The notes under the pieces are model-generated. The model made no database searches. It saw only the letters and a program-made list of their open reading frames with translations, and had not been told where the DNA came from. A stretch of 64,000 nucleotides of DNA from Vulcanimicrobiota bacterium (GTDB taxonomy: Bacteria; Vulcanimicrobiota; Vulcanimicrobiia; Vulcanimicrobiales; Vulcanimicrobiaceae), in NCBI GenBank assembly GCA_963777315.1, contig CAVZQC010000003.1:1-64000 (forward strand), read 5' to 3'. Each line of letters opens with the position of its first letter. Position 1 is the stretch's first letter. The position numbers and the translations under genes were made by a program. Below, piece after piece: positions 577 through 59,898 of this stretch.

Positions 577-621
577 AGCCTAGCATGCAGCGGGCTCGCT
601 AATCTGTGCGGGTTTTAGGCA
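577..621 (-). promoter_or_regulatory. Crp-type box copy A (TGCCTAAAACCCGCACA, 605-621) + 22 bp + -10 TAGGCT
   Basis: Matches the motif repeated 8 times in the window, with one extra C; faces the ABM gene. Confidence 0.65.
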
Positions 622-635
622 AAGAAAAAACACTC

Positions 636-1427
636 TTATTTTGCCTCCACGCAGGGTTCAGCGCTCTGAACAACATGCAGGAAGCCGGTGAATTGATCTC
701 GCGCCACGGCGTAACACTCACAGGTCGTCTCTTCAAGGCCCACACGATCGAGGATTGTAATACATCCATGCGCGTACTGAATATATCCGGCGCGCTGAAG
801 CGCGGCGAGCGCGATGGTCACGCCCGATCGCCGGCTGCCTAGCATCATGGCGAGATATTCGTGCGTTAACAGAATCTCGTCCCTGCCTACGCGATCGTGC
901 GTCAGTAGCAGCCAACGGGCGCAGCGTTCGTACACGCTGTGCAGACGGTTGCAGCCGGTAAGCTGCCCAAGGAAATTGACGTACGCCTGTAAGTAGCGAT
1001 TTAACACCGCGTTGAACTGCTTATCCATCGTCCGCAGATGGTGGAAATGGTTCGTGGGCATCTTTATGGCGCGCCCGGGTACTTGGCAATAACTATCGTT
1101 CGCCGTGGTGGTGCCGTCCATGAGCAACGGGATGCCCGAAGTCCCTTCGCGGCCGATCGTCCCGACCTCAATCTCGCCGCCGTCCTTCATCCGTGTTACC
1201 ACGGAGAGCACGCAGTCGATCGGGAAAAAGACTTCGACTATTGGTTCGCCGGCACGGTAGATCGCAAAACGGGCGGGCATCTCCAGAAGTTCGGCGCCTT
1301 CTAACGCCTGCGTCGTCTCGCTGCTGCTGAGGAGCCGCAAGATGGCGTTCCCCTCCAAATTAGCAAGAGTCAGCCCGTTATGAGGCGGCTTCGAGGCGTG
1401 CGGCGCTTTGCGCTCGTTCCGTGGCAA
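636..1427 (-). CDS. Crp/Fnr family transcriptional regulator
   Basis: cNMP-binding-like domain (EVGTIGREG), HTH LTHEYLAMMLGSRRSGVT, C-terminal CECY; TTG start after GGAG. Confidence 0.92.
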   Translation of the reverse strand: MPRNERKAPHASKPPHNGLTLANLEGNAILRLLSSSETTQALEGAELLEMPARFAIYRAGEPIVEVFFPIDCVLSVVTRMKDGGEIEVGTIGREGTSGIPLLMDGTTTANDSYCQVPGRAIKMPTNHFHHLRTMDKQFNAVLNRYLQAYVNFLGQLTGCNRLHSVYERCARWLLLTHDRVGRDEILLTHEYLAMMLGSRRSGVTIALAALQRAGYIQYAHGCITILDRVGLEETTCECYAVARDQFTGFLHVVQSAEPCVEAK

Positions 1428-1490
1428 GAGGTGTGTGCTCCAGTGAGGCAGTTTTGGTCAATTGCTTTATTCCCCGCCCCCCGCTTTCCT

Positions 1491-1533
1491 TGACTAAAAC
1501 CGTACAGAAAGCGCGGCGTTTTACCGCTAACTT
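1491..1533 (+). promoter_or_regulatory. Crp-type box copy B (TGACTAAAACCGTACA, 1491-1506) + 21 bp + -10 TAACTT
   Basis: Repeated motif lying between the divergent crp and STAS genes. Confidence 0.7.
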
Positions 1534-1569
1534 CAGCTTATGCAGTTACTGATGAAAGAAGATTCCCGT

Positions 1570-1941
1570 ATGCCTGAGACAATCGAAATGATGCACGGGC
1601 ACGCGCGGCGCGTGGCGCGCACCGGTATTTCAGATGTCTGCTTTTCGTTGTTCGGGGAGTTCGATATTTATAACAAACATCATCTCGCAGACGCCCTTGC
1701 TTCGCATATAGCCTTTCGAACGGTCACCCTGGATTTCGCCCAGACGAAGTTTATCGATGCCGGGATCCTGGGAGTCCTTGCCCGCTTCGCCGGCTTGCGA
1801 CGCGACGTCGGCGCGGCTCGATTGCAGCTCATCAACGTCAACAGGCATTTCCGCAGGCTTTTATCCATTTGCAGGCTGGATACGAACTTTCGCATTGAGG
1901 ATGGGTCGCTGGAGGAAAAACAACGTGACGACAACGAGTGA
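1570..1941 (+). CDS. STAS domain protein (anti-sigma factor antagonist-like)
   Basis: GEFDIYN, TLDFAQTKFIDAGILGVL and RRLLSICRLD STAS motifs; start uncertain (1540/1570/1588). Confidence 0.75.
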   Translation: MPETIEMMHGHARRVARTGISDVCFSLFGEFDIYNKHHLADALASHIAFRTVTLDFAQTKFIDAGILGVLARFAGLRRDVGAARLQLINVNRHFRRLLSICRLDTNFRIEDGSLEEKQRDDNE

Positions 1942-3716
1942 TTTTCTGCTCGAACGGCTCGTCGAATGGGGCTTCTATCGCATTTACGGTTATCCGGGCG
2001 ACGGGATCAATGGGATCATGGGGGCTTTCGATCGGATTGGCGACAAACTGCAGTTCATCCAGGTTCGCCATGAAGAGATGGCGGCGTTCATGGCGTGCGC
2101 GCATGCCAAGTTCACGGGCGAAACGGGTATTTGCCTTGCAACGTCAGGCCCCGGCGCGGTCCATTTGCTCAACGGCCTTTACGATGCCAAGATGGATCAC
2201 GTTCCAGTCGTCGCCATTGTCGGCCAAGCCGCGACGTCCGCGTTAGGCGGATCCTATCAGCAAGAGGTCGATCTGCAAGTGCTGCTGCAGGACGTCACCG
2301 AGTACGTGTACACAGTCTCAAATCCGGCAGCGATGCGCCATGTCCTCGACCGCGCGGTACGCACGGCAAAAGGCATGCGCGCCGTTACGTGCGTCATCGT
2401 ACCGAAAGACGTGCAGGAATCCGAAGCGGTTCCCGATCCTCCTCGCGCGCACAACAATATGAGCAGCAGCGTGGGCTACTGCGCCCCGGTCGTCATTCCG
2501 GCGCAGCGAGACTTGCAGCGAGCGGCAGATATTCTCAATGCCGGCAAGCGCGTTGTATTGATGGTCGGGCAAGGCGCCGCCAACGCGACTGATGAGGTGC
2601 TGGCGGTCGCGGATCGTTTGGGAGCCGGCATCGCAAAAGCGCTGCTCGGCAAATACGTCGTCCCCGACGATTTGCCGTACGTGACTGGTACGCTGGGTTT
2701 ACTCGGAACGCGCCCAAGTTACGAGATGATGAACGACTGCGATACGCTCTTGCTCGTGGGAACGTGCTATCCGTACTACGAATTCCTGCCCAAGCCGGGC
2801 GAAGCACGTGGTGTTCAGATCGACATCGATCCGCGTAACGTTGGCTTGCGCTTTCCAACCGAAGTGAATTTGATCGGCGATAGCCGCGATACGCTTGCCG
2901 CGCTCCTACCGCTGCTCAAACCCAAAGCCGACAATGCGTGGCGCGAGAAGATTGAAAAGGGACAAAAGGACTGGCATGCCGACGAAGAAGCGCGCTGCCA
3001 TGTCAAGGGCGATTTGATCAACCCGCAATTGGTTTTCTGGGAACTGAACGAACGCCTGCCGGATAAGGCGATCCTTACCGGAGACGCGGGCACGCCGACC
3101 AACTGGTTTGCGCGCAACATTCAGATGCGCCGCGGCATGAAATCTTCGCTTTCCGGCAGCCTCAGCTACGATGGGGTCCGCCGTTCCGTATGCTATCGCA
3201 GCGAAGTTCGCCTACCCCCATTGTGTCGTTATCGCGTGCGCGGGCGACGGTGCGATGCAGATGAACGGCAACGCGGAGCTGCTGACGATCAAGAAATACT
3301 GGAAGACCTGGTCCGATCCGCGATTGATCATCCTCGTGCTGAACAATTCGGATCTCAACCAGGTGACCTGGGAGATGCGCATCGAATCGGGCAATCCGAA
3401 ATACGAAGCCTCGCAGGACTTGCCGGTCTTCAACTACGCGCAGTACGGCGAGTCGTTAGGTTTGAACGGCATTCGCGTCGAGCGCTCGGAGGACATTGGG
3501 CCGGCCTGGGATCGCGCGCTCGCGTCCGACCGTCCGGTGATCTTCGATGCCGTCGTCGATCCGAACATCGCCCAGCTGCCGCCGCACATCACGCTTGAAC
3601 AGGCACATAACCTCTTCTCCGCGATGCGCAAGGGCGATCCCGACGAGGGCGGGGTCATTAAGGAAAGCATCAAGAGCGTGCTCGCCGGCATCTTGCCGCA
3701 TCACGCAGAGCGTTAA
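1925..3716 (+). CDS. Thiamine pyrophosphate-requiring enzyme (pyruvate oxidase/PoxB-like), frameshifted at about 3164
   Basis: GYPGDGIN, RHEEMAAFMA, SGPGAVHLLNGLYDA; GDGAMQMN TPP motif in the second frame. Removing A3164 restores SGSLATMGSAVPY. Confidence 0.88.
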
Positions 3717-3735
3717 AACGTGGCGTTGACCGGCC

Positions 3736-4281
3736 GAAGGACAGACGGGCATCGGGTGCACTTACGCTGATATCGCTACCGCGAAACTCGTCGAGATGTT
3801 GCGCAACCGCCTGCTGGGACAGCGACGCGATGCAGATTTGCGCGCGCTGGAACGACATGGGCAACGTCACGCGTAATCTTGGACGCGACGGCATCACGTC
3901 CATGGCGATCTCGGCAGTCGATGTAGCGCTGTGGGATCTCAGAGGCAAGATTCTGGGTCAACCGGTCTGCTCGGTGCGGCGGGGAAGCGCGTGCCAATCT
4001 ACGGCAGCGGCGGCTTTAGCGGCTTACTCGCAGTTGACGAGTTGTGCCAGACCAAGATGATGCCGCTTTCGACGCATTGCGCACCGCATCTCCATCTACA
4101 CGCCGCGCTCGCGTGCAAACAGATTCGTCACATGAAATATTTTTTCGATCATGTGCGCATTGAGAACATGCTTTTCGATGGCGCAGCGGCGCCCGTAGAC
4201 GGCATTCTGGCGGCCGATCTGAGCCGTCCCGGCATCGGCCTGGAACTCAAGCACGCCGACGCGCAGCAGTATATGGTTTAG
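3736..4281 (+). pseudogene. Mandelate racemase/enolase superfamily remnant
   Basis: Fragments GIGCTYADIATA, AISAVDVALWDLRGK, VPIYGSGGF and LSRPGIGLELK lie in different frames; the central TIM barrel is deleted. Confidence 0.75.
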
Positions 4282-4290
4282 GATGAACGC

Positions 4291-7200
4291 ATGATAAAGA
4301 TTCTGACGTCTGTCGAATCGCGTGGAGATCGCAACGGAAACGACCCTGCGCCCACGCAACGCCCCGACGCGGTAAACGAAACCAACGTCGACCTCACGGG
4401 CCTCGAACGCGCCCTGCGCGCAAGCGTTCGCGGCGAAGTGCGCTTTGACGACGGCAGCCGCGCCTTGTACGCGACCGATGCCTCCAACTACCGTCAGGTA
4501 CCCGTCGCCGTCGTGATCCCGCATGATGCCGACGACGTTGAAGCGGCCGTGGCGGCGTGCCGGACGCACGGCGCTCCAGTCTTTGCTCGCGGCGGAGGCA
4601 CGGATTTAGCGGGCAGCACGTGCAATGCTGCCGTGGTGTTGGACTTCTCCAAATACATGAATCGCGTCGTGGAGATCGATTGGGAGGCGAAAACCGCACG
4701 CGTCCAGCCCGGCTGCGTTCTGGACGATCTGCGTGACGCGGCCGAAAAGCGCACGCTAACCTTTGGGCCCGATCCGGCAACGCACAACCGCAACACGCTC
4801 GGCGGGATGATCGGCAACAACTCGTGCGGGATGCACGCCCAGATGGCCGGCAAAGTTGAAGAGAATACGGAAGAGCTCGAGATTCTTACCTACGACGGCT
4901 TGCGCATGCGAGTCGGGCCGACGAGCGATGAAGAGCTTGAAACGATCATCAGCCAGGGCGGCCGGCGCGGCGAGATCTACGCTACGCTGCGCGATCTCCG
5001 GGATCGCTACGGAGATCAAATCCGGGCGCGGTTCCCAAACATCCCGCGGTTGGTTTCCGGCTATCCGTTGCAGCAGCTGTTGCCCGAAAACCACTTCAAC
5101 GTTGCGCGCGCCCTCATCGGCACGGAAAACACCTGTGTGACCGTGCTCGAAGCGACGCTGCGACTCGTTCACAGTCCGCCATGCCGCACGATGGTCCTCT
5201 TTGGATTCTCGGATATCGCGACCGCTGCCGACCACGTGCCCTTTTGCAACGGCCATGGGCCCATCGCGCTCGAAGGTCTTGATACAAGCATGTTCATGTA
5301 CATGCATGACAAAGGCATGTCGACCAAAGGCCGCGACATGTTTCCCGACGGCAACGCGTGGCTCATCGTTGAATTCGGCGCAGATACCGCGCAAGGAGCG
5401 GACGACAAGGCAGCCGGGCTGATGGAGGCATTCAAGGCGCGCGACATCGTGCCGAGCATGAAGCGCTTCGACGACGAACGTGAAGAGAAGCTGCTCTGGG
5501 AGATCCGCGAGTCGGGCCTCGGCTCGACCTCGAAGATTCCGAACCTTCCTGATTTTTATCCCGGTTGGGAAGACTCGGCGGTCGGTCCCGACAAGCTCGG
5601 CCCGTACATCCGCGACTTCCAGAAACTCATGTCGGATTACGGATACCATGCCTCGCTCTACGGGCATTTCGGCCAAGGTTGCCTGCATTGCAGCATCGAC
5701 TTCGATCTGTATACGGCTGAGGGAATTGCGAAGTACCGCAAGTTCGTCACCGAGGCGGCCCACATTTGCGTGAAGTACGGCGGCTCTTTATCGGGCGAGC
5801 ATGGCGACGGTCAAGCCCGCGGCGAGCTGCTGCCGATCATGTTCGGCGACGACCTGGTCAAAGCGTTCGGAGAGTTCAAAGCGATCTGGGATCCCCAAAA
5901 TAAAATGAACCCCGGCAAAGTCGTGCACCCGTATAAACTCGATGAGAATCTGCGCTGGGGGACGCATTATGCGCCGTGGGAACCGCAAACGCACTTCGGC
6001 TTCGTCGAGGACAACGGCAGCTTTGCCTATGCCGCCAACCGCTGCGTGGGCACCGGTAAATGCCGCAAGCATGATTCGGGCGTGATGTGTCCCAGCTACA
6101 TGGCAACGCGCGAAGAGATGCATTCGACGCGCGGTCGTGCGCGATTGCTGTTCGAGATGTTGGAGGGCAATCCGCTCAAGAACGGGTGGAGAGACGAAGC
6201 CGTCAAAGAGGCGCTGGATTTGTGTCTGGCCTGCAAAGGCTGCAAGGGCGAATGCCCGGTCCAGGTCGACATCGCGACCTACAAGGCGGAATTTCTTTCG
6301 CATTACTACGAGGGCCGTCGCCGGCCGATCGCGGCGTACGCGTTCGGATTGATGTACTGGTGGGCGAAAGCTGCGGCCCTCGCTCCGTCCCTGGTCAACT
6401 TCTTCACCCAGACGCCCGGCCTACGTGATCTCGCGAAGGCGGCTGCGACGATCGCGCCGCGGCGGCGCATTCCAATGTTCGCACCCCAGACGTTCAGGGC
6501 GTGGTTCGCCGCGCGGCCACCGCTCAACGTTGGAAAGCCGGACGTCATCTTGTGGCCTGATACGTGGAACAACAACTTTCACCCCACGACGGCGCAAGCC
6601 GCCGTGGAAGTACTCGAGGACGCCGGGTTCCACGTGAGCATTCCGAAGGTTGCGCTCTGTTGTGGCCGGCCGCTCTACGATTACGGGATGCTCGACTTGG
6701 CCAAAACAATGTTGCACGAGATCATCGCTGCGCTCAAGCCACAGATCGAAGCGGGCACGTGCATCGTCGGTCTCGAGCCCAGTTGCGTTTCCGTGTTCCG
6801 CGACGAGATGACCAACCTCTTGCACGGCAACGAAGACGCTAACCGTTTCAAGAAACAGACCTTTTTGCTCAGCGAGTTCCTTGAGAAGCACGCTCCGCAC
6901 TATCAACCACCCAAGCTCAAGCGCAAGGTTGTCGCTCAGGCGCACTGTCATCAGCGCTCGGTCCTCGATGTGTCCGCTGAAGAGCATTTACTCAAGAAGC
7001 TCGGCGTGAACTATTCATTTCCCGACTCGGGTTGCTGCGGAATGTGCGGCGCTTTCGGCTTTGAGAGCGGAGAACACTATAAGGTTTCGATGGCGGCCGG
7101 CGAGCGCAGCTTGCTGCCCGCTGTGCGCGCCGCCTCCACCGATACGGTGATCGTCGCGACCGGGTTTAGTTGCCGCGAGCAGATTTCGCAGACGACGAAT

Positions 7201-7407
7201 CGGCAGGCATTGCACCCAGCCCAGCTGGTGAAGATGGCCCTGGATGACCGCAATACCGAGCGCGACGATACGTTTCCCGAACTGCGCTACATGCCCGATC
7301 CCGCCGTCGGACGGCGCAAACTCATGCAGCGCGCGGGAGTGGCCATCGCAATAGTAGCGGGACTTGCCGCTGCGGCAAGCGTCATTGCCCTTCGCAAACG
7401 GAAATAG
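4291..7407 (+). CDS. FAD-binding and (Fe-S)-binding oxidoreductase (GlcD/YdiJ-like)
   Basis: RGGGT FAD loop, SGEHGDG, CVGTGKC and CLACKGCKGECP ferredoxin motifs, two CCG domains, hydrophobic C-tail. Confidence 0.92.
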   Translation: MIKILTSVESRGDRNGNDPAPTQRPDAVNETNVDLTGLERALRASVRGEVRFDDGSRALYATDASNYRQVPVAVVIPHDADDVEAAVAACRTHGAPVFARGGGTDLAGSTCNAAVVLDFSKYMNRVVEIDWEAKTARVQPGCVLDDLRDAAEKRTLTFGPDPATHNRNTLGGMIGNNSCGMHAQMAGKVEENTEELEILTYDGLRMRVGPTSDEELETIISQGGRRGEIYATLRDLRDRYGDQIRARFPNIPRLVSGYPLQQLLPENHFNVARALIGTENTCVTVLEATLRLVHSPPCRTMVLFGFSDIATAADHVPFCNGHGPIALEGLDTSMFMYMHDKGMSTKGRDMFPDGNAWLIVEFGADTAQGADDKAAGLMEAFKARDIVPSMKRFDDEREEKLLWEIRESGLGSTSKIPNLPDFYPGWEDSAVGPDKLGPYIRDFQKLMSDYGYHASLYGHFGQGCLHCSIDFDLYTAEGIAKYRKFVTEAAHICVKYGGSLSGEHGDGQARGELLPIMFGDDLVKAFGEFKAIWDPQNKMNPGKVVHPYKLDENLRWGTHYAPWEPQTHFGFVEDNGSFAYAANRCVGTGKCRKHDSGVMCPSYMATREEMHSTRGRARLLFEMLEGNPLKNGWRDEAVKEALDLCLACKGCKGECPVQVDIATYKAEFLSHYYEGRRRPIAAYAFGLMYWWAKAAALAPSLVNFFTQTPGLRDLAKAAATIAPRRRIPMFAPQTFRAWFAARPPLNVGKPDVILWPDTWNNNFHPTTAQAAVEVLEDAGFHVSIPKVALCCGRPLYDYGMLDLAKTMLHEIIAALKPQIEAGTCIVGLEPSCVSVFRDEMTNLLHGNEDANRFKKQTFLLSEFLEKHAPHYQPPKLKRKVVAQAHCHQRSVLDVSAEEHLLKKLGVNYSFPDSGCCGMCGAFGFESGEHYKVSMAAGERSLLPAVRAASTDTVIVATGFSCREQISQTTNRQALHPAQLVKMALDDRNTERDDTFPELRYMPDPAVGRRKLMQRAGVAIAIVAGLAAAASVIALRKRK

Positions 7408-7409
7408 CG

Positions 7410-7616
7410 TTGCAGCCGATTCTCATTGCCGGCGGCGGCTTCGCCGGTACGTCCGCTGCGCGCGCATTTGAAAAACTAACTCGGCGCGCGCACGTAGATG
7501 TGCTGCTGGTCGATCGGGATGAGGGGCTTACCAGCGCGAAGGATATGCGCCGGGTCCTTCCTATTGAACTCGATGACAGCGGCTTTTGCGTTCTTGAATT
7601 GCGACAGGAGAACTAA
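7410..7616 (+). pseudogene. Remnant of NAD(P)/FAD-dependent oxidoreductase (NDH-2-like)
   Basis: ILIAGGGFAG...VLLVDR Rossmann start only; 68 aa. Confidence 0.6.
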
Positions 7617-8491
7617 TGGCGAATTCTTATCGCTTTGGCGTTAGCGAATTTACAACGTGGCCGTGGTCCTTCGAGCGAGACCTCGAGCGTTATCCGGCGC
7701 ACGGCATCGATGTCATTGAAATTTGCGAGTTCAAATTGAACGGCGATGACTATGCGCCGCAGTTGCGCCTCCTCAAGGACAAGGCGATGACGGTAAGCTC
7801 GGTGCAGTCGACCGTGCATTCACTCTTTCCGGATAGTTTGGCGCCGCAACCCACCGCACCCGAAGACCGCGTTCGTCATATCAAAGATGCGGTGGCCCGC
7901 ATCTCTCCGCACGTTCCGGGGCAGACGCCCTTCGTTATCATCACTGGGGCCGCGCCCGGCGGAAATACGCAAATGGTGTATGACGAGTGCCTGAAGCGCT
8001 TTCCGGATCTTGCGGATTTTGCAGCGGAGCGTGGCATGCGCCTCGCATATGAGCCGTTAAACCCGGTCTTGTTCAACACCGATACGGCACTGTGGGGCTT
8101 GGATCAAGCGCTCGAGTTGATTCAGCGCATCGGTCACGAGGCGCTGGGCATGTGTCTGGATACGTGGAACGTCTTCCAGACGCCGAACCTGCACGATGTT
8201 ATTGCGCGCTGCAAAGATCGCATTTTCCTCGTTCAAGTCAGCGATTGGCACCGGCCGCGATCCGGCGCGGACCGCATCAACCTCGGGCAGGGCGAGATTG
8301 ACAACGCCGCGATCCTGCGCTCCGTTCACGAGACCGGCTATGGCGGGCCGTACGTACTCGAAATTTTCTCAGGCGAGTCGCTGCCCGACTCGATCTGGCG
8401 TGCGGATCTCGATGCGGTACTTCAGCAAAACGTCGCTGCATTCGCACGCATCTGGGAAGACAGCGAGGCGGAGGTTCATGGTCCCCACTAA
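7616..8491 (+). CDS. Sugar phosphate isomerase/epimerase (xylose isomerase-like TIM barrel)
   Basis: LAYEPLNP, CLDTWN, VQVSDW, DRINLGQG and YVLEIFS metal-site motifs. Confidence 0.85.
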   Translation: MANSYRFGVSEFTTWPWSFERDLERYPAHGIDVIEICEFKLNGDDYAPQLRLLKDKAMTVSSVQSTVHSLFPDSLAPQPTAPEDRVRHIKDAVARISPHVPGQTPFVIITGAAPGGNTQMVYDECLKRFPDLADFAAERGMRLAYEPLNPVLFNTDTALWGLDQALELIQRIGHEALGMCLDTWNVFQTPNLHDVIARCKDRIFLVQVSDWHRPRSGADRINLGQGEIDNAAILRSVHETGYGGPYVLEIFSGESLPDSIWRADLDAVLQQNVAAFARIWEDSEAEVHGPH

Positions 8492-9149
8492 GATCTACGA
8501 CCTTAGCCAGCCGGTCTTCACGAACTGTCCGCAGTACCCGGATAGCAACCCGCGTCCCGTGCAGGTGCAGCTGTTCTACATGCTCGCCGTGCAAGGTGTC
8601 AACAAAGAAATTGTGGAGATGAGCACGCATACTGGAACGCACTGCGATGCGCCGTTTCATTTTTTCGACGACGGTAAGACGATCGACGAGGTCCCGCTCG
8701 ACACATACGTCGGGCCCGCCACGGTTCTCGATCTGCGGGATAAGCAACCCGGATCGTCGATCCAGCACGCCGATATCACACGATTCGCGGATCGCATCGC
8801 ACCGGGCGATATCGTGCTCCTCAACACCGGTGGAGGCCACCGGCGCGCCAACAGCAAACAGTTTTTGACGGAATACGTTTATCTGGGCGGCGAGGCTGCA
8901 CAGCTCTTGGTCGATCTCCGCGTAAAGGGGGTTGGCATCGATGCGGTGAGCCTCGGCGGCTATGATGATCCCGAGAAGGCCGGACCTCCGCATAGAACAT
9001 TGCTCGGCAACGCCAAATTCATCGTCGAGGAGCTGTATTTCCCCGACGAGGTGATGGACGGCCGCAAGCGCCTATTCTGCGCGGCCCCGATCAAACTGCG
9101 CGGGTGCGGTGGCGCCTGGACGCGGGCAATGCTCTGGGAGTTCGATTAG
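8478..9149 (+). CDS. Cyclase family protein (kynurenine formamidase-like)
   Basis: HTGTHCDAPFH motif and GVGIDAVS; ATG 8478 overlaps the upstream gene. Confidence 0.88.
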   Translation: MVPTKIYDLSQPVFTNCPQYPDSNPRPVQVQLFYMLAVQGVNKEIVEMSTHTGTHCDAPFHFFDDGKTIDEVPLDTYVGPATVLDLRDKQPGSSIQHADITRFADRIAPGDIVLLNTGGGHRRANSKQFLTEYVYLGGEAAQLLVDLRVKGVGIDAVSLGGYDDPEKAGPPHRTLLGNAKFIVEELYFPDEVMDGRKRLFCAAPIKLRGCGGAWTRAMLWEFD

Positions 9150-12165: not shown

Positions 12166-12208
12166 TGCCTAAAACCGCACAGAGTTGCCGGCTTCGCCGG
12201 TTTAGACT
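12166..12208 (+). promoter_or_regulatory. Crp-type box copy C (TGCCTAAAACCGCACA) + 21 bp + -10 TAGACT
   Basis: Consensus copy of the repeated motif. Confidence 0.78.
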
Positions 12209-12355: not shown

Positions 12356-12568
12356 ATGGCTACTAAGCAAAAGACGTTCAAGACGATCCCCGTTGGTACC
12401 AAAGTATCGTGGCATTACCGCAGTGCCATCGGTCATGGAACGGTCACCGGCGTGTTCAAGATGGGCACCAACGCAGATAACACAATGTACAGCGTGCACG
12501 AGACTGATCACCACCCGGGCGAACCAGACATCGTGCACCATACCGGCAAAGCACTCAGTCGCGCATGA
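12356..12568 (+). CDS. DUF2945 / Tudor-like small protein
   Basis: GTKVSW...GTV...HTGKALS pattern; strong RBS GAAGGAG. Confidence 0.75.
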   Translation: MATKQKTFKTIPVGTKVSWHYRSAIGHGTVTGVFKMGTNADNTMYSVHETDHHPGEPDIVHHTGKALSRA

Positions 12569-45085: not shown

Positions 45086-45171
45086 GCGTGGCAGATTGGA
45101 CAAGGGTGAAACGGAACCCGCCGGCCGGCGCGTTCGGCGGAGGGAAGCAACCCCAGCACGAAGCAGGTCGT

Positions 45172-50818: not shown

Positions 50819-53800
50819 CTACCGGCTTGCCCCCCAGCCGAAGATGCGATCGATGAGGGTTGTGAACGTGAAATAGAATCCCTTGCGTTGCGGCTTTCCG
50901 CTCAACGTCGGATCGATGCTCCCGGAAAAATTGTATCCGGCTGCCAGACGCGCGTCGTTGCCGATTGTGTAACCCGCCTCGGCGGCCACGTCGGTCGTTT
51001 GCGCACCGGGAACGTTGGCCGCATTCAACATCCGCAGCTCAGCGCCCACGTCGAACCGCGTTCCGACGTTTTGACGGGCCCGTAGTCCGAAAAGTGAGGT
51101 GTGGGCGGCGTAATAGCCGTCTCCGTCGAGTTTCTCGGCCACTCTTCCAGCCAGTTCGAACGTATTCCATGGCCGGTACACTTCTTCGAAGGAAAGCACG
51201 TCGGTGCGCTCGGGCAGCAAGGACGAAGTTCCGGTGAGGCGCTCATAGCCGAGCAACGATACCAAGGTGTCGTTGTTCTGCGGACGATAGGCGAGCGAGA
51301 TGCGGTCGTCGGCGGCGTTCGTGCCGCTTCCGGAAACCTGATTGAGCGTTCCGAGCACCGCAATATTCGGTCCGACGTGGCCGGTAAGACCTCCGCTGAA
51401 CGTGGTTCCTCCCAGCGACCCGGTACGCGACTGATATGCCAGGGCCGCGCGAAAATCTTTGGAATCGGAATAGGCAACCGAGCCGCCGTAGACGGTAAAT
51501 CCTGCGGCGCCCGCGCCGGACGCGTTCGCCTGCTGCATCGTGAGGTTTCCACTGAGCCGTTTACCGATGCTGAATTTTTGCGTGACGCCGAGCGCGGAGT
51601 AGATGTCAGTAGCGTTTCCGGTATCCGTAATCAGATAATCGCTCTCAACGTTCATGGCCGGGCTCATCGCGCGTTCGAAGCCGATTTGCGTCGAACGCGT
51701 TCCAAGGTTCGTCAATCCGAGCGCGCCTGCAGATTGCGCGAACGCCGTTGCAGCAGAATCGCTGAGCAGTTGCCGCACGAACACTTTGCTGCGGTCGTCG
51801 AACGCATAACTCAATTCAGCGGAGGTTTGTGCCGGCTGCGTGGTCTGCGCGGTTGCTCCGGTCAGATCCTGATCGCGCTGAACGTTCAAGCCGACGCGCT
51901 TGCTCGGTTTCCAGTCGAAGCCGAGCTGAGCTTGCATTTGCGTGGAGCGTTGCAGCACATTCGGCTCAGGGGAGCTGCCCGTGAGCGGCGGCGATATGGT
52001 CAGTGGAACGTTTTGCTGCGCGTGCGCCTGGACGCCGAACAGCAGCGAAATCGTTTTGTTCACCGCTGTATTCCACAGCAGGCTCGCGTTGTTTTGCGCG
52101 TCTTCAACGCCCGCTCCATGATTGCGCTGGCCATCGGCTTCGAGCGTCAACGTCTGGCCGGGCGCTGCATGACGAGACCACGCAACGCGATAATTGGTAA
52201 AGCCCGGCGAGGATATCCCGCCGAACGGGTCGGCGAAACCGGCTGCGGTGTCTTGATACAGCGCGTCGATTTGATTGGGGCCAATGCGGTCGTTCAAGGT
52301 GAGATCGATCGCGTTGCCGCCGCCCCCGCTCGAAAGTTGACCCCCCGTAACGCCGGGCGCCGACCCCGAACTCGACGCGTGTGAAAGTATCCACTGGCCG
52401 CCCGGAAGCTTTCCGGTTAATGATTGCGAGACCAAGGAGAAGTTCGATGCTCCGGTGGCATCGTTGACGTAGGAAACGCGCAGTTTGGCTGCCGCTGAGC
52501 CGCCGATATCGACCCATGCGTTGCCTCCGGTTACTGCCGAATGCGTGGCGATTCCTTGATACTGATACTGCAGCTGCAGCACCTGAGGATTGAAATAGGG
52601 GTCGAACGGCAGCGGAACGTTGATGAAACGCAGCGTTCCGGTTGCATAATCTATCGTGTAATCGACGTTTCGAATCAACGGCGTTTGCGAGATGACGGCG
52701 CCGGTTCGCCGGTCTATCGACGCAAGGGTGATGTAATCGGATCCGACGACGATGTCGGGCTGCAGCGGCTGCGCAAGCGTCAAAAGGCCGCTCACGGGAA
52801 TGGTCGTCGAGACGTACGCCACTTGATTGCGCGCCGTGAACGCGTTCACATGAATGTGAGAATCCTTGTTCGCCAACTCGACTTTTGCACCCGAGAGCAA
52901 CTGTCGATACGCGCCAACCGCGTTGTCATCGCCGGCGGTTGCTTGAAATTGTCCCCACATGATACTGTCGCGTCCGCTGTCGAGGCGTGCGTACAACCGA
53001 TCGTTGGACTCAAAATCGGAAGATCGCGTCGAGGAATCTCCATAGGTTTGATACGGGCGTTCGTTCGGATCGTCCACGAAGGGACCATACGAAGAGAGCG
53101 GGGCAAGCGTGTTCTGCGACTCGTACGCAACGGTCAGCAGAGACTGTTTGCCGACGCGGCCGCTGGCAAACAGTGCAGCGCGTGCCCGGCGCGCGCTGCC
53201 GCCGTCGTCTACGCCATCGCCGTCGACCGCAATCGGCACGGCTCCGGCGCCTACGCTGACCAGTCCGTTGACCAGCGGTTTACGCAGATAGGGCGCGACG
53301 TACAGCGTTTGTGCAGACGTGAGTTCGCCCGCCGCGATTTGCAGCGTGATGTCGCCGGCCGTCAGCCCGGGAACGATGGGAATGCCGACATGCCCTCCGA
53401 GGCCGAGCTGCGCGGTGAAAACCGCGTTTTCGCTGCCGGGCGAGGCTGTGGGCGCCGGCGACGCGCCGGTGGTCGCCGACGGTAAGCCGGCGGATGCAAA
53501 GCGCGCATCGCCGCGCATGAGCGTGACCTTCACTGGGACTCCCGCCATCGCGGGATCCCCCCAGCGGTCCGTCGCGGAAACATCGAGCAATACGGCGCTT
53601 CGGCCGTCGGCCACGAGCGTGCCTTGCAACTGGGTGCGCAGCGTTGCGGGAGGCCCGCAACCGTAGATTAACGCCGTTGCCGAAGCTCCGCGCAACCCTG
53701 CTGCGCCTATCGGGGTGGCGACGAGCTCATTTGGGCCGGGCTTGAGGACGACGCCGAAATATTCGAACTGCGCCGTTCCCCCTTTGGCCGAAGCGGTACG

Positions 53801-54148
53801 GCGTCCGATGCGGGTAAGCGGCACGAGTTCGCCGTTCACGCGCAGCTCCACGCCGGCGCCGTACACCGTGTCGACGACGACTCGCGTTGCAACTGAAGGC
53901 GATACCGTTTTGTCGGACGGAAAAGCGAACGATGCCGTCAGCGGGCCGGTCGCGGTGTACGATTCATGCGCAAGATCCGCGTACTTGATCGAATTCGGCG
54001 ACTCGGACGGTGCCGGGCTCGGGCTGGAGATCGGCGCGGCAACGTCGTCGCCGGTGGCCCCCGATCGCGTCGCCGCCGCGCAGATCAACGAAATGGCAAT
54101 CATCATGGCGCCGATTCGGCGAAGCGCATGTGCGATGGCGATTGTCAT
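50819..54148 (-). CDS. Large exported protein with Ig-like N-region and probable outer-membrane beta-barrel
   Basis: Signal peptide; long run of amphipathic strands (FDVGAELRML, ARLAAGYNFSG, GFYFTFT); ATGA overlap with the upstream gene. Confidence 0.72.
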   Translation of the reverse strand: MTIAIAHALRRIGAMMIAISLICAAATRSGATGDDVAAPISSPSPAPSESPNSIKYADLAHESYTATGPLTASFAFPSDKTVSPSVATRVVVDTVYGAGVELRVNGELVPLTRIGRRTASAKGGTAQFEYFGVVLKPGPNELVATPIGAAGLRGASATALIYGCGPPATLRTQLQGTLVADGRSAVLLDVSATDRWGDPAMAGVPVKVTLMRGDARFASAGLPSATTGASPAPTASPGSENAVFTAQLGLGGHVGIPIVPGLTAGDITLQIAAGELTSAQTLYVAPYLRKPLVNGLVSVGAGAVPIAVDGDGVDDGGSARRARAALFASGRVGKQSLLTVAYESQNTLAPLSSYGPFVDDPNERPYQTYGDSSTRSSDFESNDRLYARLDSGRDSIMWGQFQATAGDDNAVGAYRQLLSGAKVELANKDSHIHVNAFTARNQVAYVSTTIPVSGLLTLAQPLQPDIVVGSDYITLASIDRRTGAVISQTPLIRNVDYTIDYATGTLRFINVPLPFDPYFNPQVLQLQYQYQGIATHSAVTGGNAWVDIGGSAAAKLRVSYVNDATGASNFSLVSQSLTGKLPGGQWILSHASSSGSAPGVTGGQLSSGGGGNAIDLTLNDRIGPNQIDALYQDTAAGFADPFGGISSPGFTNYRVAWSRHAAPGQTLTLEADGQRNHGAGVEDAQNNASLLWNTAVNKTISLLFGVQAHAQQNVPLTISPPLTGSSPEPNVLQRSTQMQAQLGFDWKPSKRVGLNVQRDQDLTGATAQTTQPAQTSAELSYAFDDRSKVFVRQLLSDSAATAFAQSAGALGLTNLGTRSTQIGFERAMSPAMNVESDYLITDTGNATDIYSALGVTQKFSIGKRLSGNLTMQQANASGAGAAGFTVYGGSVAYSDSKDFRAALAYQSRTGSLGGTTFSGGLTGHVGPNIAVLGTLNQVSGSGTNAADDRISLAYRPQNNDTLVSLLGYERLTGTSSLLPERTDVLSFEEVYRPWNTFELAGRVAEKLDGDGYYAAHTSLFGLRARQNVGTRFDVGAELRMLNAANVPGAQTTDVAAEAGYTIGNDARLAAGYNFSGSIDPTLSGKPQRKGFYFTFTTLIDRIFGWGASR

Positions 54149-56316
54149 CGTGTATCCTGCAGAGCGAAGTTGACGTCTTCCATGAGGCCGTCGTCGAAGA
54201 GTCCGTGCACCAAACGCTGCATCGACCACGTGCTGTTCATGCGCGCGTTCGAGAAGGGACGAACGGTCTGCGGAATCGTCGCCGGATCCACGCGTAGCAC
54301 GTGCATCCCGGGCCTCACGGCCGCGAACGAGTAGCGTCCGTTCTGATCCGTAAGGACGGAGCTCCCGTCCTCCAGAAAGATACGCACGCCCGCAATGCCC
54401 TCATCGCCTGTGCTGAACCGTCCGGTGCGATGCACGTCCAGAAACACGCGGCCCGTGATCACGCCGCGCTGCGAGAACGCTCCGGCGACCACGCGTACGT
54501 CGGCAGTTGCGCCGGCCGTCGCCGAAACGGCGGTTCCCGGAATCTTCGCTGAAGCGGTCACCGTGTTGACGAGCGTCGTTCCGGCCACCGCTGATGGAAA
54601 AACGAGGGCGGCGTAGACGATGTCGTGCGTCGTCGAGGGAGGTAACGCCGGAACGTTCCAGGTCAGAACGCGCCCGTTTACCGAAGGTTCCAGCGGCGTT
54701 GAGTCCATGCGCGCCGTGCCGGGTGCGTACGATTCGCCCGGCGGAAGCACGTCCGCTACTTGCGTTTCACCGAGTCCGGATTGCGATGGATTCCCGAATT
54801 GGATCGTGTAGATCAGCCGATCTCCGGGCTGCGCGACCGGCTTATCCACCGCTTTGCTCACCGAGATCGATCGCGCGGTGAACAGCGGGACGTTTCCGAA
54901 CAATCCGAACACGTTGGCAAGCGTTACGTTGGCGGAAGTCAGCACAAAACCACCTGCTTGCGCCAGCGGCTGACCGTCCAGCGACGAAGCCGTGACGTCG
55001 TACAGCATCTTGCCGGCATCGAGTTTTATAATCAGACCGATCTTGCGGTTCATGAATCCCGGAGCGGTAATCGTCAGGAAAAACTGCGATCCCCCGGGCG
55101 CAATCATGCTCGGCGCGACCGCGAAGGAATACGCGCCGTTCGCGCCGGTGGTGAACGGATTCTGCGTGTTCGCCGTATCGACGGGCGGCACGCCGCTCAT
55201 ATTCACCGGTTTACCGTTTGCATCCAATAGCGTGACGACTGCTGCGCCCACCGGGCGATCGGCATTTGAAGGATCGAAAACGAGGTTTGCAGTCCCGATC
55301 AGCACGCTCGCAGGCGTCGTATTGGTGGCGGATACGCCGTCGGCCGCCACTTGCGCAACGTTGGTGAAGGTCGCACCGGTCGTCGAATTGGCCAGAACCG
55401 AGGCAGTAAAGGAGACGTCGAACGTCGCCCCGGCCGCAACCGAAGGAATGCGGACCGACAGCGTCCGACCGGAAAGCGTCGCAGCCGAACCCGCCGGCGA
55501 CCCGTCGAGCAGCACCGACGAAAGATTCGCTTGCAATCCGGCCGGAACAACATCGGTGACCACCACGTTCGTCGCTGCCGCTTCGCCCGAGTTCTTCGCG
55601 CGAATGTCGAACGTGACGTCGGCGCCGGGGTTGGACTGTACGATCAGCTGCTGATCGACCGTTTTCGATATCTGCGTCGCAGGGCCGCCGATCCCGGTGA
55701 ATTGCGGACCTTGCGCTGCCAAGGCCCATTGCATGCCGGTGTCGCTTTGCAATCCGTTGGAGGTACCTGCGACCGTGGTTTGCGCCGTAATGGAAAGCGG
55801 AAACGCCGTTCTAAGCGCGATGCCGCCCGTTGAAACGACGATCTGCAACTCAATGGAGTCACCCGGCGGGACGCTGGGCGAAACCGTCGATCCAATCGTC
55901 GCGGGATACGATGCGCCGCCTGCGACGAACGCCGCGGAGAGCAGCTTACCGGGACCGGTGCTTGCGGTCTGGATCGTGTACGCGTCGGTGACGTTGCTGA
56001 CGTTCGTGATTGTGAACGCGCGCGTCACGTTCGATCCGGCGGCGTAGGCGTCGGTCGCCGGATCGACTTTCGATTCCTTCGGCGTGACGGTGAGCGCTCC
56101 GACCGGCGCGTACGTTGTAATCACCGGGTTCGAATCGGCAACATAACTCTGCCCCGAACCGTCTTCATATGTGGCGGTCGCGGTGTTCTGCACTTTGGAG
56201 CCTGCCGGAGTCGCGGTAATCATCGGCCTGAAAGGCGCCGCCTGCAGCAGTCCCGGTGCGAGCGCAGCCAGCGCGAACACGGGGAGAATCTGCCGAACAA
56301 CGCGTGCGATGTTCAC
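54145..56316 (-). CDS. Secreted DUF11 repeat protein with C-terminal SdrD B-like domain (putative base subunit)
   Basis: Signal peptide, [17 protein letters not shown], two complete DUF11 domains, ITGRVFLD...[14 protein letters not shown]...TDQNGRYSF. Confidence 0.82.
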
Positions 56317-56340
56317 GCCGGATGCGCTAAACGCTTCCCG

Positions 56341-58674
56341 TTATTTCGCGATCACCGCGAAGTACAGGATGCCGCCGACCTGTGGCGTCAGCACGAACGT
56401 ACCGCCGCCGACTTGATCCATGAACGCGTTGGATGCGACCGCGTTGCCGTTGTCGTTGGGCGTGCTGGATCCGCCGACGACCGCGTACGTCGAGCCCGTG
56501 GTGTTGTCGCCGCAGGTTCCCGCAACGTTGCCGCACTGATTGGTTACCGCAGCACCCGAGGTGAGCGCTTCCTTCAATCCACCCGAATACGTGGCCCAGG
56601 TATTCGTGCCGGCGCCGCCGTCTTCGGTGATTTTTAGCGTTCCCGCGACCATCGCGAGGGCAACGTTTCCTGCTCCACTGACCGTGCTTACCGGAAGCGT
56701 ATTGAGATAGGCGACTTTGTATTGGATTACGCCGGCCGGACAAACGCCGTTCGCCGGAACGGAAGCACCCGCGGGACACCCGGTTGAGAGCACGGTTGCG
56801 GTTTTTTGCAGCGAGATGAAGCCGCCCGGCATGAGCACGTGATAGGTCGAGTTACTGTACGATCCGGATGCTTGTGAGGTCGCGAGCACCTGAACGTATA
56901 TTGGATTGAAGTCCGTCGGCGCGTTTGCTCCGCTTGCGCTGCTGTATTTCACGCAGTACGGCGCGGTCGCGCTCGCCGAAACGGAGATCTGATAGTTGCC
57001 TGAGCCGTCTTTGGTAGCCAGATTCGTGCAGTTATAGTCCGTGTACACGCCGGTCACCGTGACGGCCGCCGGCAGGCTCGGAAACGTAAAGGAGTACGTG
57101 TCGTTGCCGCTCGACGTATTCTGAAGATCGCCTGGAACGTTGAGCACCGTGCCGCCGGGGAGCTGGGCGCCGAACGTGCCGTTGGATCCCAGACTCGCTT
57201 GCGTGAAATCGGTGTTGGTAGTGTTGCTGCCGCAGGTCGCGGTGTTGTAGCAGCCGGAAGCGCCGGCGGCGCCTTTCGGGCCGTTGAGCACACCGGGAAC
57301 GTTGCTGGTCGTAGTATTCGACAGGCCGTTGGCCGCAGGATTTCCGCTCGCGGCATTATACGCGGTCGATGGATCGGCGGTACCGTTATTGGGAACCGTT
57401 CCCGGCGCGATGCCCGGACCTTCTACAAAGCCCGCGTTGTCCGCGTATGCCGTGACCGCGACGTTCTTGATCGCATTTCCGGGCGGCAAGTTGGTGAGCG
57501 TGAGCGTAAACTCCAGTTCCGCTTGCGCGTTGCTGACGTTGCCTGCACTCGACCCCGACGACCCGACCGGAATCGCCCCGGTACCGGTGATGTAAACACC
57601 CACAAAGTACGCGGTGCCGGCGGATGGAGCGGTGGTCGTCCAGCCGGATTTTCCCGTGTTGTCCGTGGTGTAGACGATCGTTGCGGTGTCGCCCGCGATG
57701 CTGATGTTCTTGGTGATGCTGGCGCTCGAAACGGTAAGCGGCACGCCGCCGTTTTGCGGAATCTTGTCGGTGACCAGGATGCCGTTGTTGGTTGCGCTGA
57801 GCGCCGAGCCGGTAATCGTCGTACCGCTTTGGCGAATCGACTGCAGCAACTGCGCGGGCGCAGCGCCGCCGTTGTTCACGTCGATCGTGTAGGTGAGGGT
57901 ATTGCCCGAAACGACGCCGGCGGTTTTCTGCAAATCCAAGCGTGCGTCGGCGACGACCGTATCGCCGTACGTGTTCGATACCGCATTGGACGTCGAAGCG
58001 CCGTAATTCGAACCGGTCCCCGGATAAGTGATCGTCGCACCGGCAACCGTAGTGCCCACGGTGCCGGATCCCGCCGTTGTGACTTTATATTGAATCGCCA
58101 CGTTGATGAACGCGCCTGCTGGCAGGCCGTAGACGTTCGTGTTTGCGGCCGTCGAAAGATACGTATTGGCTGCGGCGACCGTCGCGAACGTATGCGGCAC
58201 GCCGTCCGTACCGGTGACGATGACGTTTTGGAACGTACCGGGTCCGCTGACCGTCGACGTGCCGGCGCCGAGCTGAAAGTAGCCGCTGGAATTTCCGGTG
58301 TTCGTCAGCGTGTAAATGTCGTTGATGACGTTGCCGTACACAATGGGACCGGCCGGCACGTTTTGATTTTGCGTGGTCGAACCCGGCGCAGTTCCGTTGT
58401 TCGTCGTGATCACCAGCGAAGGCGCGTTCTGGACGAACGTCTGGACTTGATTGGACGTCGAGCTGTAGGTGTTCGTGCCGTCGCTGTATGATGCGCTGGC
58501 GGTGTTGTTGATCGCGGTACCCGGCGCGGTGGAGGATGTCGGCGTTGGCATCGGCGTGTAGATTGGCGGCGGCGTGGCGGCAATGGCGGGTGAAACGCCG
58601 ATTCTCACCGCCGCAAGAGCCAGCCCACAGGCCAGAACGAAAAGCAGGGCCAGCAGGCCGCGCGAAGTCTTCAC
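56341..58674 (-). CDS. Secreted Thr/Gly/Asn-rich DUF11 protein (putative major subunit)
   Basis: GTG after GAGGA, signal peptide, TAPGTAINNTASASYSD N-motif, LQKTA repeats, ends GILYFAVIAK. Confidence 0.82.
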   Translation of the reverse strand: MKTSRGLLALLFVLACGLALAAVRIGVSPAIAATPPPIYTPMPTPTSSTAPGTAINNTASASYSDGTNTYSSTSNQVQTFVQNAPSLVITTNNGTAPGSTTQNQNVPAGPIVYGNVINDIYTLTNTGNSSGYFQLGAGTSTVSGPGTFQNVIVTGTDGVPHTFATVAAANTYLSTAANTNVYGLPAGAFINVAIQYKVTTAGSGTVGTTVAGATITYPGTGSNYGASTSNAVSNTYGDTVVADARLDLQKTAGVVSGNTLTYTIDVNNGGAAPAQLLQSIRQSGTTITGSALSATNNGILVTDKIPQNGGVPLTVSSASITKNISIAGDTATIVYTTDNTGKSGWTTTAPSAGTAYFVGVYITGTGAIPVGSSGSSAGNVSNAQAELEFTLTLTNLPPGNAIKNVAVTAYADNAGFVEGPGIAPGTVPNNGTADPSTAYNAASGNPAANGLSNTTTSNVPGVLNGPKGAAGASGCYNTATCGSNTTNTDFTQASLGSNGTFGAQLPGGTVLNVPGDLQNTSSGNDTYSFTFPSLPAAVTVTGVYTDYNCTNLATKDGSGNYQISVSASATAPYCVKYSSASGANAPTDFNPIYVQVLATSQASGSYSNSTYHVLMPGGFISLQKTATVLSTGCPAGASVPANGVCPAGVIQYKVAYLNTLPVSTVSGAGNVALAMVAGTLKITEDGGAGTNTWATYSGGLKEALTSGAAVTNQCGNVAGTCGDNTTGSTYAVVGGSSTPNDNGNAVASNAFMDQVGGGTFVLTPQVGGILYFAVIAK

Positions 58675-58687
58675 TGATGTTCCTCGA

Positions 58688-59191
58688 TTACGGCTTTTTG
58701 GCGGCGGGATGTCCGTTGACGCGCACTTCATAGCTGAACGTCTGCGTCTTATGCGGTGCAAGTGCCCGTGGCGCGATCCAGCGCACGGCCTTGTACAACG
58801 CCGGGTCGGCGGCTTTCACGAGCGTTCTTCGCGGCGTCTTCACCGAAAAGGCCGGCCGGGCGGACCAGCTCTTCCCATCCAGCGTGTATTGGACGGCGGC
58901 ATCGTCGCCGCGCGCAGACTGCAGAACGTATGAAGTTGCTTGGGGGATGGGGCCGACCGGAACGAGTTTGAACGCGGGAGAGGTTCCTACGTTCGTCGCG
59001 ACGATCGTGTAGCGAACGAGATCGCCGGCCTTGAGCGTCAGCCCTTGCACGGGCGTTTGTTTGATTTGACCGTTGCTATGCTGCACAAGCACGCCGCTCA
59101 AATGCAGTTTCACCGCGGGTGCCGCCGCGGCTGCCGCCGAGCAGCACGCAAAAATCGCGCCCAACAGTAAAGGCGCGCGCAGAACTCTCAT
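58688..59191 (-). CDS. Small secreted single-DUF11-like protein (putative chaperone)
   Basis: GGAGGA RBS, signal peptide, AGDLVRYTIVATNVG, PIPQATSYV, VRW, FSYEVRV. Confidence 0.82.
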   Translation of the reverse strand: MRVLRAPLLLGAIFACCSAAAAAAPAVKLHLSGVLVQHSNGQIKQTPVQGLTLKAGDLVRYTIVATNVGTSPAFKLVPVGPIPQATSYVLQSARGDDAAVQYTLDGKSWSARPAFSVKTPRRTLVKAADPALYKAVRWIAPRALAPHKTQTFSYEVRVNGHPAAKKP

Positions 59192-59339
59192 GTATCCTCC
59201 CAACAGCGTGCGGTGCACCGGACCGCAACGCTTATTAGCACCACTATCGGAAGGGAAGGCTCGCGCTATAGGTGTCCGGCACTGTACATACGAAAATTTA
59301 ACGCTGCACCGCTCGAGCTCAGCACGCCCACCGATTTCA

Positions 59340-59859
59340 CTTCAGCGCGTCGCCGTACTTACCCGAGAGGTTCTCATTTACTTGACCGGTTTCGCCGGCC
59401 CAGGGCTGCTTGGAGTCCTTCATGTCCGTCATCGTCGCAACCAAGGTATAGCGCGGGTTGATCCTCCTGGCGGCGGTTGGAATAAAACAGCACGATACGA
59501 TGCTGCAGCTTGAGATGAGCCGCTTGGACGACGATGCTCCGAAACGTCGTGATACGTGTAATGTCAGGTCTCCGAATGGACCCTCGATGTTCGTGGCGCT
59601 CTCCAATGCTTCGGATTTCAAGACGCGTTTAAACGCCGTGCCTCGCGTACGCGTAGCGATCATAATATGTTCTTCGTACGGAGCGCTTGCAACGGAAAAG
59701 CCGCGTATTGCCTTCGCTGTCGTTCTCAGGCGGAATTGGAAAGCGTGATGTCGATAAACTGCCCGGCCGTAAACGTCCAATCGGCCGGCTTTGAAATTCG
59801 AAAGCCATCGTGCCCTTAGCGGCTTGCTCGCCTTAAGCGGCGATATAAACGTCGGCCAC
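59340..59859 (-). pseudogene. Degenerate copy of the FNR-like oxidoreductase at 13903-14643
   Basis: RGFSVASAPYE, AFKRVLKSE, IEGPFGDLTLH and YTLVATMTDMKDSKQPW shared; multiple deletions and frameshifts. Confidence 0.85.
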
Positions 59860-59860
59860 C

Positions 59861-59898
59861 AAACCGCACAGATAACGTGGACATTTGCCCCCTACGGT
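59861..59898 (+). promoter_or_regulatory. Truncated Crp-type box copy H (AAACCGCACAGA) + 22 bp + TACGGT
   Basis: Right half of the motif; the left half was lost at the deletion junction. Confidence 0.5.

Follow-up and report, generated by a model that had tools for sequence, protein, structure and literature searches.

The first 64,000 nucleotides of contig CAVZQC010000003.1 (contig C3) of a Vulcanimicrobiota bacterium of soil [GenBank assembly GCA_963777315.1], hereafter the window, include a gene for a Crp/Fnr-family regulator, crp (product P0001; 636-1427, reverse strand), and eight copies of a short box that lie between the genes of the surrounding island. A full box is composed of a promoter-side half (CGYACA) followed by GA and of a far half of different sequence (TGYCTA, joined through AAAC), and a -10-like hexamer, TAnnnT, follows at a nearly constant distance. 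The locus raises the question of what reads these boxes, and of how a regulator that would bind as a homodimer could use a site with two unlike halves. The answer favoured here, drawn from sequence comparisons, is that the boxes are probably class II sites of a homodimer of the island's own Crp, which would sit near -41.5 and activate general-stress genes through -10 elements of the primary-sigma type.

All eight boxes listed in a first-pass annotation of this DNA are present, with the strands and the hexamers given there. Each is intergenic, is followed by TAnnnT after 21 bp (five boxes) or 22 bp (three boxes), and is aimed at a start codon on the same strand 19-202 bp beyond the hexamer. TAnnnT occurs at a frequency of 0.0036 per position genome-wide and 0.0096 near the sites; at the local rate, all eight hexamers would fall at either of two spacings with a probability of about 2e-14, a naive figure for a spacing picked post hoc. 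All eight therefore have the 16-bp core ending 21-22 bp before TAnnnT that is expected of a class II Crp/Fnr promoter. The two-fold symmetry also expected of such a site is lacking in the window, where the far half matches an ideal half at only 2-3 of 6 positions, but is found in relatives. The description of the box as a 16-bp TG-N12-CA site holds strictly for four of the eight. The other four deviate: the box at 605-621 is TG-N13-CA with one extra C, which is missing from the orthologous sites of two other genomes (G128 and G096), that at 12937-12952 ends in CG, that at 26861-26876 starts with CG, and that at 59855-59870 has no far half.

The boxes are confined to the island. A matrix built from six of them scores those six at 26.9-32.4 bits, and the next best place in the 2.83-Mb genome reaches 18.5. 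A second matrix, covering the box plus the -10 hexamer and trained on 24 sites from other genomes only, places the same six at the top of the genome (24.1-48.6; next 14.6) and gives 5.7 and 7.4 to the two imperfect boxes, the latter being 59855-59870. The motif scan of the genome and its relatives that had been proposed as a check thus ranks six boxes first genome-wide and recovers the box in relatives. When the promoter-side half alone was followed over 3970 half-sites genome-wide, no spacing peak was seen (the two spacings have 12 and 16 hexamers, others 6-22), indicating that the signal is restricted to the island. A genome-wide regulon was rejected on the same result and on the lack of any strong site outside the window. 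No box was found in 42-59 kb of the window, and no lopsided box beside the genome's three other family paralogues (31 kb fetched).

The proposed class II (-41.5) geometry is supported by the relatives, in which half-site and spacing recur together beside crp orthologues throughout the class. On the divergent and downstream flanks of these genes the recurring half-site is CGYACMGA, TAnnnT following 19-20 bp further on, and the family form of the site is a palindrome, K-GTRCG-N4-CGYAC-M, with the same spacing to the -10. The palindromic pattern was detected in 24 of 201 class genomes (control 2), and 22 of those 24 hold a family member, compared with 125 of 201 overall. Among the 29 palindrome matches listed, 8 lie within about 200 bp of an orthologue, and in five f3 genomes with exactly one family member, which were picked for having the palindrome, it adjoins that gene in all five. 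A Burkholderia multivorans plasmid [NZ_CP090706.1] carries 13 palindromes that have a YANNNT hexamer 21 bp away (control 0), situated among CsbD, PRC-barrel, BON and DUF3309 genes, and two Crp genes with an identical helix (RRSGVTE). In an unselected 30-kb stretch of this plasmid, a hexamer is found at 21 bp in 8 of 14 orientations and at most once at any other spacing, and at 8538-8607 and 23843-23912 (L170) single palindromes between divergent small stress genes have 21-bp hexamers on both sides. A Calothrix plasmid has one copy of the palindrome directly after its crp, and looser sites flank crp in Scytonema and Acidobacteriota loci. Judged from these sites, the palindrome is the ancestral-type site of the subfamily. 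Of the genomes compared, G019 is among the seven lopsided-box genomes described below and contributed no more than two of the 24 training sites, G059 appears as a single row of the palindromic clade, G073 counts among the 24 palindrome genomes and fills one tree row, and G036 gave one isolated match; none of the conclusions rests on these four by themselves. At four loci labelled as other phyla (L113, L119, L137 and L145), the Crp is 58-63% identical to P0001 and nested among Vulcanimicrobiota, reflecting mis-binning or transfer.

P0001 has the architecture of the Crp/Fnr superfamily (an N-terminal beta-barrel of cNMP type, a long dimer helix and a helix-turn-helix at the C terminus). It matches HTH_Crp_2 (PF13545, E 7.5e-14), and the cNMP domain (PF00027) at 27.4 bits against a cut-off of 27.5; no NCBIfam model scores above its cut-off. 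The predicted structure (pLDDT 88) is most similar in Foldseek to GlxR and Mycobacterium tuberculosis CRP (TM 0.65-0.70, 18-19% identity), and a sequence search of the PDB returned only two weak single-sequence matches and no close solved structure. The Glu and Arg of the GlxR pocket (FGEL...PRTS) align to non-matching residues of P0001, and the recognition helix, R200-S-G-V-T-I-A-L207 (R-E-T-V-N-K in GlxR), is not an RExxxR helix; the accessible text of PMC3590769 gives an RExxR helix motif for CRP. From the unmatched pocket residues and the R-S-G-V-T-I helix, cAMP is an unlikely effector, and base-specific contacts to DNA are likely to be few. Nor does P0001 resemble FNR, as there is no Cys before residue 72, the conserved Cys residues are at 159, 236 and 238, and ExSR is absent. 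Two motifs, C159-N-x-x-H163 at the end of the dimer helix and C236-E-C238-Y in the tail, have each residue present in 96-98 of 99 family sequences, and by these motifs P0001 is a member of a widespread CNxxH/CECY Crp subfamily, an informal grouping that covers 125 of 201 class genomes (E 1e-30), 310 plasmid records and Atlas clusters that are mostly from Pseudomonadota. With the relatives considered, P0001 is the likely reader of the boxes. Three further CNxxH/CxCY Crp genes are located on contig C4 (G000:C4:168786-170491 and C4:88614-89423); two are in tandem with R-P-S-V helices, and one of the three is near a sigma-28-like gene and cheR/cheB.

The strong asymmetry of the boxes had been called unusual for a homodimeric Crp. 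It is real but less unusual than supposed, being the extreme end of a family-wide gradient and in part a consequence of overlap with the -35 region. When the sites at 72 orthologue loci, which as kin are not independent, were scored symmetrically, 46 segments had three mismatches or fewer, and the promoter-side half was the better one in 34 of these, equal in 7 and worse in 5. GA follows the promoter-side half in 43 of the 46, and the mirror-image TC is found on the far side in none. The trailing GA falls on positions 3-4 of the -35 hexamer, and the -35 hexamers are poor (CAGAnn). Its one-sidedness and position suggest that GA is not part of the dyad and is likely read by sigma region 4. The far half varies by clade, from GGTACG-tttc (family f3) through GGTGCT-atag or GTGYG-aaac (ARRSG clade) and GGTKA-aaaa with TGCRCAGA (TQRSG clade) to TGYCTA-aaac in the clade of the window. 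Alternative far-half registers (N3, N5 and N6) were compared by eye, and none was clearly better than N4.

The lopsided pattern is rare. It was detected in 7 of 385 class genomes (reversed control 0), or 6 of 201 (control 0), and of ten metagenome loci with a lopsided box, seven share island genes and four carry the orthologue. Spacing is 21-22 bp in 30 of 31 distinct lopsided boxes, many of these loci having been fetched with patterns that require the hexamer. In a quick tree of the 49 of 99 sequences that have a clear flanking site, the nine Crp sequences flanked by a lopsided site fall on a single branch (SH-aLRT 98). This subclade is marked by Leu207 in the recognition helix and by F152, T157 and G158 at the end of the dimer helix, in groups drawn after the flanking sites had been compared. 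By tree and site together, the asymmetry is a clade variant, and TGYCTA-AAAC marks one Crp subclade.

In the favoured mechanism, the Crp dimer would bind at about -41.5 and its promoter-side subunit would contact RNA polymerase as in class II activation, which is described, including overlap with the -35 region, in the accessible part of PMC10187061. The promoter-side half would be kept near-perfect because its subunit sits against the polymerase, GA(C/T) would be read as positions 3-5 of the -35 hexamer, and the weak -35 hexamers would make output depend on Crp. The far subunit, on a poor half-site, would be helped by the A-tract. TGYCTA and the A-tract, fixed in the subclade, are likely kept by selection for being read indirectly, through DNA shape, by a helix without CRP's Glu and second Arg. 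A lopsided box may further limit firing to one direction, the two Burkholderia palindromes with hexamers on both sides being the counterpart. The signal is likely not cAMP, and Cys159, His163, Cys236 and Cys238 are candidates for a metal or redox sensor.

Several observations weigh against this reading. The subclade has a single origin, so clustering of site type on the tree is not co-evolution, and the sequences are kin. Despite its 2-3 matches of 6, the far half shows the same degree of conservation as the near half, which is not predicted for a purely weak half-site. A genome on a single contig (G084, 97% complete) has a perfect lopsided box and no island Crp (best 43%), and two fragmented genomes (G019 and G183) have the box without the orthologue. 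Conversely, subclade members at L093, L096 and L161 have no box nearby, and strict palindromic patterns went unmatched in 3 of the 5 plasmids and in 4 of the 5 genomes from other phyla that carry a family member. In G084 the box belongs to an island fragment (C1:1940001-1960000; L264) beside a phage-type integrase and two IS3-type transposases, and the gene behind the box is cut by an insertion sequence.

The conservation of the far half might mean instead that two proteins read the box, with Crp on the promoter-side half and the other reader, whether a Crp paralogue in a heterodimer, another factor or the alpha tail of the polymerase, on TGYCTAAAA. This would account for the equal conservation of the two halves between genera and among promoters that are not orthologous. 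Family paralogues, often with an R-P-S/V-V helix, are also present in each of the five lopsided-clade genomes that have the island Crp, and the five single-member genomes have palindromes; the A-tract, at about -44 to -41, coincides with the position of a proximal UP element. However, the paralogues are not orthologous between genomes that share the far half (those of G000 are 27-31% identical to those of G096 and G128, and 32-38% to those of G312 and G004), so that a fixed heterodimer partner is unlikely. The single family member of G060 has sites one mismatch off the palindrome, and drift of the far half thus needs no partner. The window ORFs (open reading frames) scanned in 1-42 kb included no further gene for a DNA-binding protein. 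Two readers are therefore considered improbable, though a loose class of partner keeps some chance, since each of the five genomes has a paralogue of some kind.

A far half that is not read at all, and is shared only by descent from one copied promoter, is likewise a poor prospect, the link to Crp being retained in that case. The promoters at 12166, 12937 and 14710 do share TTAGACTGTA and 47-53% spacer identity, identity of spacer plus downstream sequence over all pairs is slightly above that of shuffles (p 0.04-0.05), and the half box at 59855 does without a far half. Against this, identity in the upstream flanks of the eight sites does not exceed background (0.257 versus 0.258) and most spacer pairs are unrelated, while far-half identity is 0.66, which argues for selection over recent copying, the spacer similarity of the three promoters notwithstanding. 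In addition, the same ten bases have been kept at both flanks of crp though the proteins are only 67-72% alike.

It is very unlikely that the box is the extended -35 element of an alternative sigma factor with crp as a mere neighbour. An orientation-fixed motif, targets of the general-stress kind, a STAS (anti-anti-sigma-like) gene as first target and 16 sigma-70 region 2 matches in the genome would all suit such a factor, but relatives carry the full palindrome, two of the Burkholderia copies have 21-bp hexamers on both sides, contig C3 has no sigma gene and the type of site follows the Crp tree. A promoter of the sigma-E type (GAAC...TCTA) was rejected for its incompatible spacing. That Crp is a repressor blocking the -35 region until a signal releases it is hardly to be expected, for although the box overlaps the -35 position and RedB, a Crp of uncharacterised type with a non-palindromic motif, represses many genes according to the accessible part of PMC9603854, the poor -35 hexamers leave little basal promoter to repress and a repressor has no need of a fixed 21-22 bp spacing.

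With Crp activation as the preferred reading, the targets can be assigned, operons being drawn from same-strand adjacency. The claim that this Crp activates most operons of the island stands as regards the link to Crp and, roughly, the word 'most' (about 29.4 kb of the first 40 kb belongs to units headed by a box); activation itself we infer. The gene was also said to be flanked by two boxes, and both are there, but they aim at other genes. The box at 1491-1506 (+), upstream of and divergent from crp, has its -10 (TAACTT) at 1528-1533 and points to a STAS-domain gene (1570-1941, +; start uncertain, 1540-1591), a conserved neighbour of crp and its likely first target. This gene heads a predicted operon (1570-11388, +) for STAS, TPP oxidase, enolase-like, FAD/Fe-S oxidase, TIM-barrel, cyclase, DUF4432 and Mo-oxidoreductase/cytochrome b proteins. 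The box at 605-621 (-), downstream of crp, has TAGGCT at 577-582, points to an ABM-like gene (89-568) and has orthologous boxes in G128 and G096. As no full box in the window is aimed at crp and both flanking boxes point away from or past it, the boxes lend no support to autoactivation of crp. An A-rich run (TAAAGC, ATAAGC or AAAAA), read by eye, faces crp some 21 bp beyond the far end of the crp-proximal box, at 1464-1470 in the window and upstream of crp in L018, L019, L025, L028, L033, L035 and L040; it may be a promoter element of crp itself or a site for the alpha tail.

A STAS ORF adjoins 35 of the 72 orthologous crp genes, directly behind a box and on either side of crp (loci L018-L129), and its product is a candidate feedback partner. 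The STAS protein of the window has D-A-G where others have D-A-S or D-S/T-T, and so lacks Ser at the usual phosphorylation position. In one genome (G128:C1:1635217-1647326) the crp cassette and both flanking boxes are duplicated 11.5 kb apart, and the second crp is frameshifted.

The remaining boxes precede the following genes. That at 12166-12181 (+; TAGACT, 12203-12208) is aimed at a 70-aa Hva1/TUDOR-like gene (12356-12568; E 0.0007, below cut-off), and that at 12937-12952 (+; TAGACT, 12974-12979) at an ORF without a Pfam match (13155-13646), which presumably resembles the N-terminus of a glycosyltransferase. The box at 14710-14725 (+; TAGACT, 14747-14752), which has orthologues in G019, G084 and metagenome loci, heads a predicted operon (14954-22539, +) for a secreted protein of no assigned function, SPFH, a succinate-dehydrogenase-like pair, NHL and ETF-QO. 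The box at 26861-26876 (-; TATGCT, 26833-26838) is aimed at DUF488 and a predicted operon down to 22747. It alone in the window has a hexamer at 22 bp on the opposite side (TACGAT, 26899-26904, +), towards a hemerythrin gene (27039-27509) similar, below cut-off, to Pseudomonas aeruginosa PA2171. A weak candidate ninth box, missing from the first-pass annotation, is located at 33727-33742 (-; TATTAT, 33700-33705; 10.0 with the cross-genome matrix) and aimed at a PRC-barrel gene. The box at 33774-33789 (+; TAAAAT, 33811-33816) heads a predicted operon (33855-40131, +) for cytochrome c, gluconate 2-dehydrogenase subunit 3, GMC oxidoreductase, HhH-GPD and Cox II/I-like proteins, and the half box at 59855-59870 (+; TACGGT, 59893-59898) is aimed at a second DUF488 gene. 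The families behind boxes, namely STAS, TPP oxidase, Hva1/TUDOR-like, SPFH, DUF488, SDR, glycosyltransferase, PRC-barrel and gluconate dehydrogenase subunits, are, as families, of a general-stress type. Short hairpins that differ between sites were seen in several spacers (12182-12208, 14726-14752 and 26833-26860), and at 12166 and its orthologues the -10 region (GTTTAGAC) partly mirrors the far half (GYCTAAAA). A structured RNA or tRNA-linked repeat was rejected, as the window contains neither an Rfam match nor a tRNA and the hairpins vary by site.

The island itself appears to travel. Its left end is cut off because the window is the start of contig C3. The closest relatives are in Vulcanimicrobiota/Eremiobacterota, several of them Baltobacteraceae, and island genes at 71-89% DNA identity are found, differently arranged, in G096, G128, G084, G183, G019 and metagenome contigs, while the one genome of the same genus (G001, 93% complete) lacks both the box and the orthologue (best 41%). 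Such scattered occurrence in five genera suggests that the cluster is mobile; the 67 window ORFs scanned include no integrase gene. The TPP oxidase (1757-3716) and the succinate-dehydrogenase Fe-S subunit (19158-19989) are each split over two frames, ORF 13155-13646 stops early, and the second copy of an NAD-binding oxidoreductase (59337-59859) contains stops. These, and the extra C of box 605-621, may be assembly indels or signs of decay. Also inside the island are a GTP cyclohydrolase I-PTPS fusion (25328-26353) and a class I Trp/Tyr tRNA synthetase (28710-29942), and further on lie an adenylate/guanylate cyclase-NB-ARC-TPR protein (45049-47970) and a cluster of large DUF11 surface proteins (49310-59218).

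A literature search, with subscription papers, supplements and regulon databases largely outside its scope, found no description of this box or subfamily. The motif is not given in the accessible main text of PMC3590769, PMC8510549 and PMC9045368, whose supplements may bear on it, and the only match to the motif string, in PMC7294313 (AnfA), concerns another regulator as far as the accessible text goes. Class II activation as a mechanism is textbook knowledge. The present analysis links a large Crp subfamily, with no characterised member found in our searches, to a DNA site, a class of promoter and a set of targets, and extends it to Eremiobacterota, in which gene regulation has been little studied. 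New elements are the Eremiobacterota members, the single-copy link, the reading of GA as -35, the clade-by-clade drift and the pairing with STAS. The series from palindrome to lopsided box, each form tied to a protein subclade, offers material for testing how an asymmetric site comes to be favoured by a symmetric dimer and how class II promoters constrain two halves differently. A bolder view, which we hold to be rather doubtful as a whole, is that a widespread Crp branch with a Cys3His sensor serves as a portable, sigma-independent general-stress switch across phyla, and that in this Eremiobacterota subclade an asymmetric dimer, possibly shaped by a STAS partner, reads two different half-sites and so locks the box to one direction, while its palindromic cousins fire both ways.

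Among known systems, Escherichia coli CRP (CAP; TGTGA-N6-TCACA), with class II sites centred at -41.5, shares the fold, the 16-bp core, the 21-22 bp to the -10 and the -35 overlap. P0001 differs in its helix (R-S-G-V-T-I versus R-E-T-V-G-R), in lacking the pocket Glu and Arg and in its extra CNxxH/CECY motifs; the family box has an inner CG-N4-CG core, and the island regulon is local with a lopsided far half. The promoter motif of cyanobacterial NtcA is GTA-N8-TAC-N22-TAN3T. At the same spacing, GTA-N8-TAC is embedded in the family palindrome, GTACG-N4-CGTAC, and NtcA structures are among the profile matches to P0001, but P0001 is distant (profile E 5e-9, 17-18% structural identity), its targets are of stress rather than nitrogen type, and the boxes of the window lack the far GTA. 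The general stress regulons SigB, RpoS and PhyR-EcfG are driven by sigma factors. They have similar types of target (CsbD, PRC-barrel, hemerythrin, DUF488 and oxidoreductases) and a STAS protein, whereas the switch here is likely a Crp activator at primary-sigma-type promoters that is carried with its targets. Asymmetric AT-rich sites of Crp-family proteins have been ascribed to bending, for SyCrp1 conformers (PMC3159480) and RedB (PMC9603854). As far as the accessible parts of those sources go, the asymmetry there is that of a binding conformer or of a 12-bp ChIP motif, whereas here it is fixed to the direction of the promoter and marks a protein subclade.

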